Shown here one piece after another: positions 9,120 through 23,529 of a DNA stretch of 64,000 nt. A program made the translations under genes and the position numbers. This stretch comes from Octopus vulgaris (Eukaryota). How positions within the stretch are numbered: the stretch's first letter is position 1; each line of letters opens with the position of its first letter. Under the pieces are notes generated by a model that saw only the letters and a list, made by a program, of their open reading frames with translations, was not told the origin of the DNA and did no database searches. The DNA lies in the NCBI GenBank assembly GCA_951406725.2, contig OX597818.1, positions 34,596,001 through 34,660,000 of the forward strand. The letters run 5' to 3'.

Positions 9120-9300
9120 GATTCTTGTGATGAGGTGGCTTGTGTGCTTCAATGACCCTGAAAGCTATGTCAATGCAAGCTCCTGGTGAGGTCTTCCTTG
9201 GTGGACAGGTCAAAGGATACAAGTCAGACTATTAGGGACCACTTCTTCCCTGAACTGAAATCGGTTTTGTGTAAGGTTAACATTCCTACTTAGAAAGAAG
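9120..9300 (+). mobile_element. RTE 5'UTR-like fragment
   Basis: gaggtggcttgtgtgcttcaatgaccctgaaagctatg...ggacaggtcaaagg..tcagact resembles the conserved RTE 5' region. Confidence 0.55.
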
Positions 9301-21360: not shown

Positions 21361-21520
21361 GACAGGCTTCTTTCAGTTTCCGTCACCAAATACCAAATCC
21401 ACTCACAAGGCTTTGGTTGGCTATAGTAGAAGATACTTGCCTAAGTTACTATGCAGTGTGACTGAACCTGGAACCCTATGGTTGGGAAGCAAGCTTCTTA
21501 TCATACAGTCACACCTGCAC
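21005..21520 (-). mobile_element. CORE-like tRNA SINE
   Basis: same family as 12305. Confidence 0.85.
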
Positions 21521-22610
21521 CTATGTTTAAGAAAAATATGTTGAAAAAATCAAAAGAAATCCTATCAAACATATTAACTAGTAACATTTTCTCTTCAACA
21601 CATGTTTTAACCCTTTAGCTTACATAGTATTCTGTCAAATGTAATGCTCATTTATCCACATAAATACATAAAATTTTGGATTTATGAAGGGTCAAAGTTA
21701 GGAACAAAAACAGGACAGTGGAGACATACAGGGAAACTAGACGAAAACAAACATGGAGGGTCATTAGACCTGAACAAGGGGAAAATAGTGAATACAGAGA
21801 GAAATATTTTCTTTGAAGAGAAAAGATAGAAGAGAGAGAGATATAGGAGACGTCCTGTCCTTATAACGTCCAAGCAGGAAAGAAAGATGGTTACCTAAGG
21901 AAAAGAAAGATGGACGATGGTCACATGTGAGCAATGAGAGAGAGAAAAAGAGAAAGAGGAGGAGAAAGAGAGACATAAAAAACGGTGATTAGAGAGGATA
22001 GGGGAGAAAATAGTATAGTCACACACACAGTAGTTGACATTAGGAAGGGCAGCCAGCTCTAGAAACACTGCCAGATCAGACTGGAGCCCGGTGCAGCCTC
22101 CTGGCTTCCCAGACCCTGGTCGAACCTTCCGACCCATGTTAGCATGGAAAACAGACGTTAAACGATGATGATGATGATGATGATGATGATATATATATAT
22201 ATATACGACAGGCTTCTTTCAGTTTCCGTCTACCAAATCCACTAACAAGGCTTTGGTTGGCCTAAGGCTATAGTAGAAGATACTTGCCTAAGGTACTATG
22301 CAGTGTGACTGAACCTGGAACCCTGTGGTTGGGAAGCAAGCTTCTTACCATACTGTCACACCTGCACCTATGTTTAAGAAAAATATGTTGAAAAAATAAA
22401 AAAAGAAATCCTATCAAACATATTAACTAGTAACATTTTCTCTTCAACACATGTTTTAACCCTTTAGCTTTCATTGTATTCTGTGAAATGTAATGCTCAT
22501 TTATCCAGATTGTTTTTAATTAAGAATTAATTATCTTGTAGCTTTTAGATTTCAGTGATGTGAGTGTTTAGTATTACAGGGACATTATAGAGTAGGTGTG
22601 AGAGGCCAGA

Positions 22611-22730
22611 TCTTGATGGGGGATCACTCGGCTCGTCCGTCGATGAAGAGCATGGCTATCTGCGTGAACTGATGCGAATTGCAGGACTCAGTGAACATCG
22701 ACAGTCTCGAACACACATTGTCCCGGGGCC
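22611..22730 (+). pseudogene. 5.8S rRNA-derived sequence
   Basis: tcttgatgggggatcactcggctcgtccgtcgatgaagagc..tgcgtgaactgatgcgaattgcaggac.cagtgaacatcgac..tcgaacacacattg follows the eukaryotic 5.8S consensus; no 18S or 28S recognised nearby. Confidence 0.9.
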
Positions 22731-23185
22731 CCATTGTCCTGGGGCCCCATTGTCCCGGGGCCCCATTTGGTCGAGAGGTGTTGCGTCCCCAAAGCCCATC
22801 CCCTCCTCACCATGGTGGGGATGCTGGCAACGGGTAGTGTCAGAGCTATGCCGTCGGGAACTTCGGTTCCTGATAGGGCCACCCAAGGTGGATTGGTCTG
22901 ACACCGAGCGGTATTAGGGCCACAACCCGGCAGACGGGGCTCCGGTGAAAATCCTCGGAGTGTCTTTTTCGGCAACCGGCAGCTCCTCAGTCGTTCTGTC
23001 CCTGCGTCTGCGGACAATCTGCGGCAAACAGGATGTCTCTACATGCGGGATTGTTGGGGACTGCTTGTGAAATTCATATTCCCACGAAACTTTTTCCACT
23101 GCCATTGTTCGAGATGCCTCGAGGGTGGTAGAAGAAGCCGACTCAACCCGCCCAGGATGAATGTCACCACAAGTACAAGTAAGTA
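22614..23185 (+). mobile_element. 5.8S rRNA-headed, RTE-related non-autonomous retroposon
   Basis: AGATCT at 22608-22613 and 23186-23191; GC-rich body; caagtacaagtaagta tail. Confidence 0.7.
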
Positions 23186-23529
23186 AGATCTAGCTGGTTT
23201 CAACATACAACAGGTAGAATATTTTGACCTGATGTGGCTGGTTTTTAAATGCTAAAGAGTTAAAGACATTAAACATTAACTTATCATATAAACCATTCTA
23301 GCAGGTTAAACTGGATAAGAAAACCAGGTTAAATGTATAATCAAGCTATTCCACTTATGTAGAACATTGATGTCCTTGGGAAAAAAGTATAAATGCTATG
23401 CACTGTTTATCTACCACCTGAAGTTGAAAGGACTTATGGGTAAGAGACATTTTGGCACAGCTGTTTCGGTGTTACTGATTCAATACTGACTTGTTTGACA
23501 TCAAATGATTTAGTGTTTCTCTCATTTTA

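Follow-up and report, generated by a model that had tools for sequence, protein, structure and literature searches.

Recurrent fusions of 5.8S rRNA to retroposons in Octopus vulgaris: a probable repeated accident and not a new SINE family

A sequence resembling 5.8S rRNA, joined to a retroposon in the genome of Octopus vulgaris, raised the question of whether it represents a new SINE class or a one-off chimera, the two possibilities named in the initial annotation of the locus. It lies in a stretch of 64,000 nucleotides (GenBank assembly GCA_951406725.2, contig OX597818.1, positions 34,596,001 to 34,660,000), hereafter called the window, and the window features described below are all on its forward strand. 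The coordinates, the base composition and other copies of the host MITE confirmed that a 572-bp GC-rich insert bounded by AGATCT sits in a TTAA-bounded MITE, as first described. The insert occupies positions 22614-23185 and has a GC content of 50-63%, compared with about 28% in the flanks. The left part of the host MITE, recognized by its TTAA-bounded terminal inverted repeat and by uninterrupted homologous copies, lies at 22457-22607, and the right part, recognized by MITE alignments and the inverted ends, at 23192-23263. The hexamer AGATCT is found at 22608-22613 and is repeated at 23186-23191. By length alone this repeat is at chance level (score of at least 6 in 30 of 246 permuted pairs), and its 6 bp are below most target-site duplication (TSD) lengths in the family of the insert's body. 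It is nevertheless a true TSD, because the site consists of one hexamer in other copies of the host MITE (six alignments) and because, in contigs of four public runs, position 22613 is followed immediately by MITE sequence. The short TSD, backed by this empty site, encloses both parts of the insert, and the inner repeat, which would flank the 3' partner only, reaches a score of 2.

The public runs also bear on the age of the insertion. A contig of run X1 (organism A) leads from the left flank into the 5.8S head over 22400-22644 with zero differences, and a contig of run X6 (organism C, which has a different species label) covers 22401-22696 with 18 differences and 3 gaps. The 5' junction is thus common to more than one individual and, if the species label is right, probably older than the split between organisms A and C. 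No contig of the four runs extends over 22733-22769, a gap that is evidence neither way, and the tandem unit and the joint between 5.8S and body described below are read from the assembly only. Close to the insert, a local duplication with 95% identity (21454-21661 and 22301-22510, about 847 bp apart) contains a SINE end and a MITE start. Elsewhere, another copy of the host MITE family has a 3' fragment of the body element next to it (locus L101, near 3112).

The head of the insert is a copy of 5.8S rRNA. The Rfam model RF00002 matches 22608-22763 with 77.2 bits (gathering threshold 42; E 2e-18), which bears out the Infernal-type check suggested for this locus. As reference we used the 5.8S of the rDNA in this genome, which repeats in tandem on C20 every 18 kb and in which 18S, 5.8S and 28S were identified; one unit of about 18.4 kb (L116-L117, G000:C20:23983000-24001000) gives an unusually long 18S match of 2643 nt. 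Aligned to this reference, the head (22614-22780) starts at about position 8, near the 5.8S 5' end as had been noted, and continues to about position 159, beyond the roughly 120 nt first assigned to it. Its end coincides with that of the Rfam model and that of the 5.8S-28S helix. Neither ITS1 nor ITS2 adjoins the head in the insert when aligned to the same rDNA, and we therefore conclude that the copy came from processed RNA. The copy is CpG-decayed: between positions 8 and 112, changes are found at 5 of 26 CpG sites and at 1 of 79 non-CpG sites. In the 3' hairpin, three copies of a 16-nt unit (22716-22767) stand in place of the 5' arm and the loop, and a genome search with this unit gave matches at the window locus only. 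The 3' hairpin seems prone to duplication, since locus L112 carries a different duplication within it; the unit would likely result from stuttering of the enzyme at this hairpin, or from later slippage. From the 5.8S 3' end to the first body base, whose position is defined by copies of the body and the LINE, the junction is nearly flush, with only TT at 22781-22782.

The body that follows, of about 403-405 nt, joins the two ends of a LINE. Positions 22783-23098 (body 1-316) correspond to the initial 316 nt of an RTE-like LINE 3.3 kb long, comprising the 5' UTR and possibly the first codons, with 90-93% identity to loci L230-L233. Positions 23099-23185 (body 317-405) correspond to its last 87-89 nt or so with the CAAGTA tandem tail, with 86-98% identity to LINE 3' ends. 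In four near-full-length LINE copies (L230-L233), the two pieces lie about 3.3 kb apart. The proposal of RTE-type 5' and 3' pieces is thus upheld by matches to both ends of these four copies, and the tandem tail is present as CAAGTA repeats. An unassigned middle was also proposed; there is none, since 22783-23098 is continuous with the LINE 5' end. The suggested likeness of the RTE-like block to positions 9160-9212 did not stand out from shuffled sequence (score of 77 versus 76±7; p=0.084). We also compared the body with ITS2 and 28S, as had been advised, and rejected rDNA as its source, the best match to the rDNA unit being 15 nt long with an E value of 0.9.

Pfam domains Exo_endo_phos and RVT_1 were found in L230-L232. 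The parent LINE thus combines a length of about 3.3 kb, an endonuclease with a reverse transcriptase and a short tandem-repeat tail. It is a putative member of the RTE clade, as size, domain order and tail fit the features of that clade, and its C-terminal motif presumably resembles RTE as well. We infer that it encodes a single ORF, all copies seen having broken frames. Seven further LINE loci are 5'-truncated and stop short of the 5' end; the longer copies came from a second search. The 5' part is inverted in two LINE copies (L230 and L130), an arrangement known from twin priming and seen here in an RTE-like element.

The body contains the whole of an abundant element that also occurs free-standing and for which a first look gave 1854 candidates, the best 40 of which were scored; among these, the matches other than that of the window start at query positions 171-190. 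Own TSDs (score of at least 8) were found at 17 of 29 other fetched body loci, and standalone copies with a TSD mostly have few extra bases ahead of the start. With its internal deletion, high copy number and own TSDs, the body is a bipartite non-autonomous LINE. It differs from the family majority at 8 of 349 non-CpG and 7 of 56 CpG sites, and at non-CpG sites head and body are similarly diverged (1/79 versus 8/349), which is compatible with a single insertion event. At one locus (L014:1317-1906), body positions 2-187 are joined directly to a complete body copy, a possible self-jump. A longer bipartite subfamily of the same LINE, of about 505 nt and with another deletion breakpoint, was seen at L123, L124, L126, L134 and L135.

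We then asked whether this fusion belongs to a family. Searches of the genome with the whole insert, the head, a core motif, a 3' motif and the tandem unit found no second junction between 5.8S and this body. No 5.8S lies upstream at the 29 other body loci that were fetched, and neither the other 85 core matches to 5.8S nor 25 further 3'-motif matches include a join to this body. As the best 40 candidates were scored in the repeat searches, these numbers are minimum values, and a sibling that has diverged strongly could escape. A simple pattern scan gave no Pol III A/B box match in the insert, and runs of five T are present in the body at 22965 and 23091. 5.8S is a processed Pol I product and is not known to have an internal promoter. 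None of the public runs listed for the insert is on record as RNA, which says nothing either way on transcription. Of the two possibilities named at the outset, the chimera is retained and the SINE class is not, the junction having been found at this locus only. The recurrence of 5.8S capture, at about 40 loci and with other partners, was not visible to the initial annotation.

To describe this wider set, all 86 places in the genome that match the 5.8S core motif were fetched and aligned. Thirty-three with ITS sequence (rDNA units or fragments) were set aside, leaving 53 processed-like copies and, after removal of one local duplicate, 52 for analysis. A retroposon 5' end was found within 70 nt of the 5.8S end in 41 of the 52, up to 9 of which are self-matches because nine partner references were cut from tested loci, compared with 20 of 1500 random positions; the random control omitted the window's body family, for which its pool was enriched. 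The remaining 11 copies have a truncated partner (3) or no partner (8). At least six families are represented among the 44 partners, with 29 in A/A2 and a single locus in family H, and 41 of them start at their native 5' end; families A-D are presumably tRNA-type SINEs. Searching with the 3'-end motif gave 25 more places, of which 15 align to 5.8S and three (L145, L148 and L169) look like more fusions. At L094 (G000:C13:20525955-20531520, minus strand), 5.8S positions 13-105 are fused to the apparent 5' end of a different LINE-derived element, present twice, 1.5 kb apart.

The outer TSD was defined as a direct repeat between the flank 5' of the 5.8S and the 3' end of the partner, and could be assessed at 41 loci; 11 of the 52 copies lack a recognizable partner 3' end and were outside this test. 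Scores of at least 8 were reached at 20 of the 41 loci versus 8 of 246 permuted pairs, and scores of at least 10 at 18 versus 3; the other 21 loci have no TSD with a score of at least 8. Among the 36 loci with complete partners, an outer TSD was found at 18 and an inner, partner-only TSD at none for scores of at least 10 (20 and 2, respectively, for scores of at least 8). An outer TSD without an inner one indicates that the fusions are single insertions. The 5.8S breakpoints span positions 96 to 161, the linkers, mostly short and U/A-rich, differ between loci, and only 5 of 1326 pairs of copies have two or more non-CpG variants in common, none of them involving the window copy. Given these varied breakpoints and linkers, the diversity of partner families and the few common variants, about 40 5.8S fusions likely arose independently. 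Most copies start at positions 5-9 of 5.8S, some with microhomology, and in the upstream flanks of L115, L106 and L067 the copy is directly preceded by short repeats taken from the target or from the 5.8S 5' end, which suggests repeated priming attempts at the 5' junction.

U6 shows similar associations. Among the top 30 U6 loci examined, 19 have the same retroposon partners, and TSD scores of at least 8 were found at 10 of these 19 versus 12 of 114, scores that are partly inflated by AT microsatellites. Many full-length U6 copies among L200-L229 are fused, and L208-L212 form a tandem U6 cluster with a spacing of about 1.1-1.4 kb. An element of about 50 nt with a sharp 5' end serves as 3' partner at L062 and L066 and at U6 loci L204, L214-L216, L219, L225 and L228; it doubles as the tail of longer SINEs (L050).

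The point at which 5.8S ends is not evenly distributed. In 23 of the 52 copies it falls at positions 153-157, a few bases before the 5.8S-28S helix is complete, and 11 of these copies have it at 157. In the 19 measurable copies that end there, the first four linker bases comprise 47 T, 19 A, 9 C and 0 G, the absence of G at the first base being partly built into the end calling. Where 5.8S breaks off earlier, the linkers are rich in A (39 of 68 nt). In C. elegans, according to the available part of one report, 5.8S gains 1-6 U from CDE-1 (PMC7472701). The T-rich linkers in octopus may be fossil uridylated rRNA tails or non-templated bases from the enzyme during the jump, which look the same in DNA. 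A further reading, which is possible but against which we lean slightly, is that this genome holds a fossil record of tailed 5.8S rRNA. The enzyme, having copied a SINE or bipartite template, would prefer U-rich 3' ends; the T-rich linkers would be tails of decay or maturation uridylated in vivo, and the fusions would form an undescribed recurrent class, a natural set of failed SINE births.

We think it likely that the insert in the window, in which a processed cellular RNA lies in sense orientation 5' of a retroelement, is a chimeric retrocopy of the U6/LINE kind that arose through end-to-end template jumping and underwent no further amplification. The complete 3' partners across the genome argue for such jumping in vivo. 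The protein of the RTE-like parent LINE would carry out target-primed reverse transcription of the bipartite RNA; the reverse transcriptase would run off at the 5' end of that RNA and jump to the 5.8S 3' end, aided by a non-templated A on the cDNA that pairs with the U-rich 3' end of the acceptor, and the second end would be joined within a few bases of the 5.8S start. The product would remain unspread, the 5.8S head bringing no promoter, since 5.8S likely has no internal one. Alternatively, the 5.8S 3' end could have been ligated to the element RNA before the fused RNA was retrotransposed, as proposed for U6/L1. We find this unlikely, given the native 5' start of 41 of the 44 partners. A native RNA 5' end carries a triphosphate or a cap and would not offer the 5'-OH that RtcB needs. 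The U6/L1 partners, moreover, are described as LINE 3' ends in the available part of a recent preprint, in which sense chimeras are attributed to ligation or template switching (bioRxiv 10.1101/2025.02.02.635956). Prior ligation would still account for parts in sense orientation under one TSD and for internal 5.8S breakpoints at 96-148, which resemble cleavage products, and DNA alone cannot tell it from template jumping.

Two successive insertions, with a 5.8S retrocopy first and the element later at its T-rich 3' end, would make sense if such a tail were a favoured target, and a few loci (L089 and L115) do have long linkers or an inner repeat. This order of events is very improbable and largely refuted for the 5.8S fusion class: inner TSDs with a score of at least 8 are confined to 2 of 36 loci versus 20 of 36 for outer ones, the window's inner score is 2, and the MITE empty site reveals one duplication around both parts. 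Improbable in the extreme is a low-copy SINE family with a 5.8S head that relies on a flanking or unknown promoter. The anatomy fits the model of SINE birth in which a small-RNA head is placed on a bipartite LINE (PMC5786205, available part), and partner family A is common to 26 loci. However, the window junction was found once, the fusions to family A differ in breakpoints and linkers and have almost no common variants, and the insert gave no A/B box match in the pattern scan and has two T5 runs in its body. Loci L092 and L112 have an identical microhomology junction, as judged by eye. Together, these data point to a recurring accident and not to a new self-spreading SINE family.

Comparison with known systems, based on the available parts of the papers cited, places these fusions among chimeras of small RNAs. 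U6 chimeras are described with L1, L2, RTE, Mon-1 and AnolisSINE2 (Doucet et al. 2015, PMC4476161), and the partners of L1 comprise U1-U6, U3, 5S, 28S, tRNA, 7SL, Y and 7SK, its 5' partners including pieces of 5S and 28S rRNA (Law et al., bioRxiv 10.1101/2025.02.02.635956). In the octopus fusions, as in the U6/LINE and U6/SINE chimeras, a retroelement is preceded by an abundant small RNA in sense orientation, a single TSD surrounds the two, and the loci are independent. Unlike the U6/LINE chimeras, the octopus fusions have 5.8S rRNA as 5' partner and U/A-rich linkers at the join, and in most of them the 3' partner is whole from the first base on instead of being a LINE 3' end. In vivo, R2 jumps from its full-length 5' end to U12 and tRNA (Eickbush 2012, PMC3414825), so that in both cases the fully copied 5' end of an element RNA is followed by the 3' end of a stable cellular RNA. 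The octopus fusions differ from these R2 jumps in the LINE type, the dispersed targets, the non-autonomous templates, the rRNA acceptor and the dozens of events.

The addition of a head to a bipartite LINE by template switch has been proposed as a step of SINE birth, and SINEs are set apart from chimeric copies by a high copy number of near-identical structure (Kojima 2018, PMC5786205). Like Bov-A/Bov-tA and RTE-N2_Lch, the body of the window insert is a LINE derivative with 5' and 3' ends and an internal deletion; unlike the head-plus-bipartite SINEs of the same work, the insert has a head for which no Pol III promoter is known, and its fusion turned up a single time. For these two reasons the window fusion looks like a failed SINE birth. 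A head derived from a structural RNA is also seen in SINE28, SINE3 and SINEU (PMC5786205, PMC10946416), which have many near-identical copies, whereas no two of the 5.8S heads could be traced to one master. The term "5.8" gave no match in the available text of Law et al. (bioRxiv 10.1101/2025.02.02.635956), nor did "rRNA" in that of Doucet et al. (PMC4476161) or 5.8S in that of Kojima 2018 (PMC5786205). As far as their available parts go, the elements in a review of rDNA and transposable elements derive from 5S and 28S alone, 5.8S appears in Noll 2015 solely as part of a search library, two further papers (PMC2718515, PMC3774820) mention it only as an rDNA component, and the main text of a 2026 O. 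vulgaris repeat annotation contains neither "rRNA" nor "chimer". We found no published report of 5.8S as a chimera partner in the passages of openly accessible papers that were searched, and a recurrent set of 5.8S rRNA/retroposon chimeras is apparently undescribed so far.

The fusions widen the range of chimeras between small RNAs and retroelements, which now includes 5.8S rRNA as well as an invertebrate whose LINE is RTE-like. A single genome provides about 40 natural replicates, with a U6 series for comparison, and jumping can be tested against ligation in a system other than L1. The model in which SINEs originate from a head and a bipartite LINE predicts exactly such an intermediate as the window copy, yet this fusion was found only once. 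If the tailed-5.8S reading were true, the promoter, and not the fusion step, would limit new SINE heads; if the linkers are RNA tails, they would report on rRNA surveillance in the germ line.
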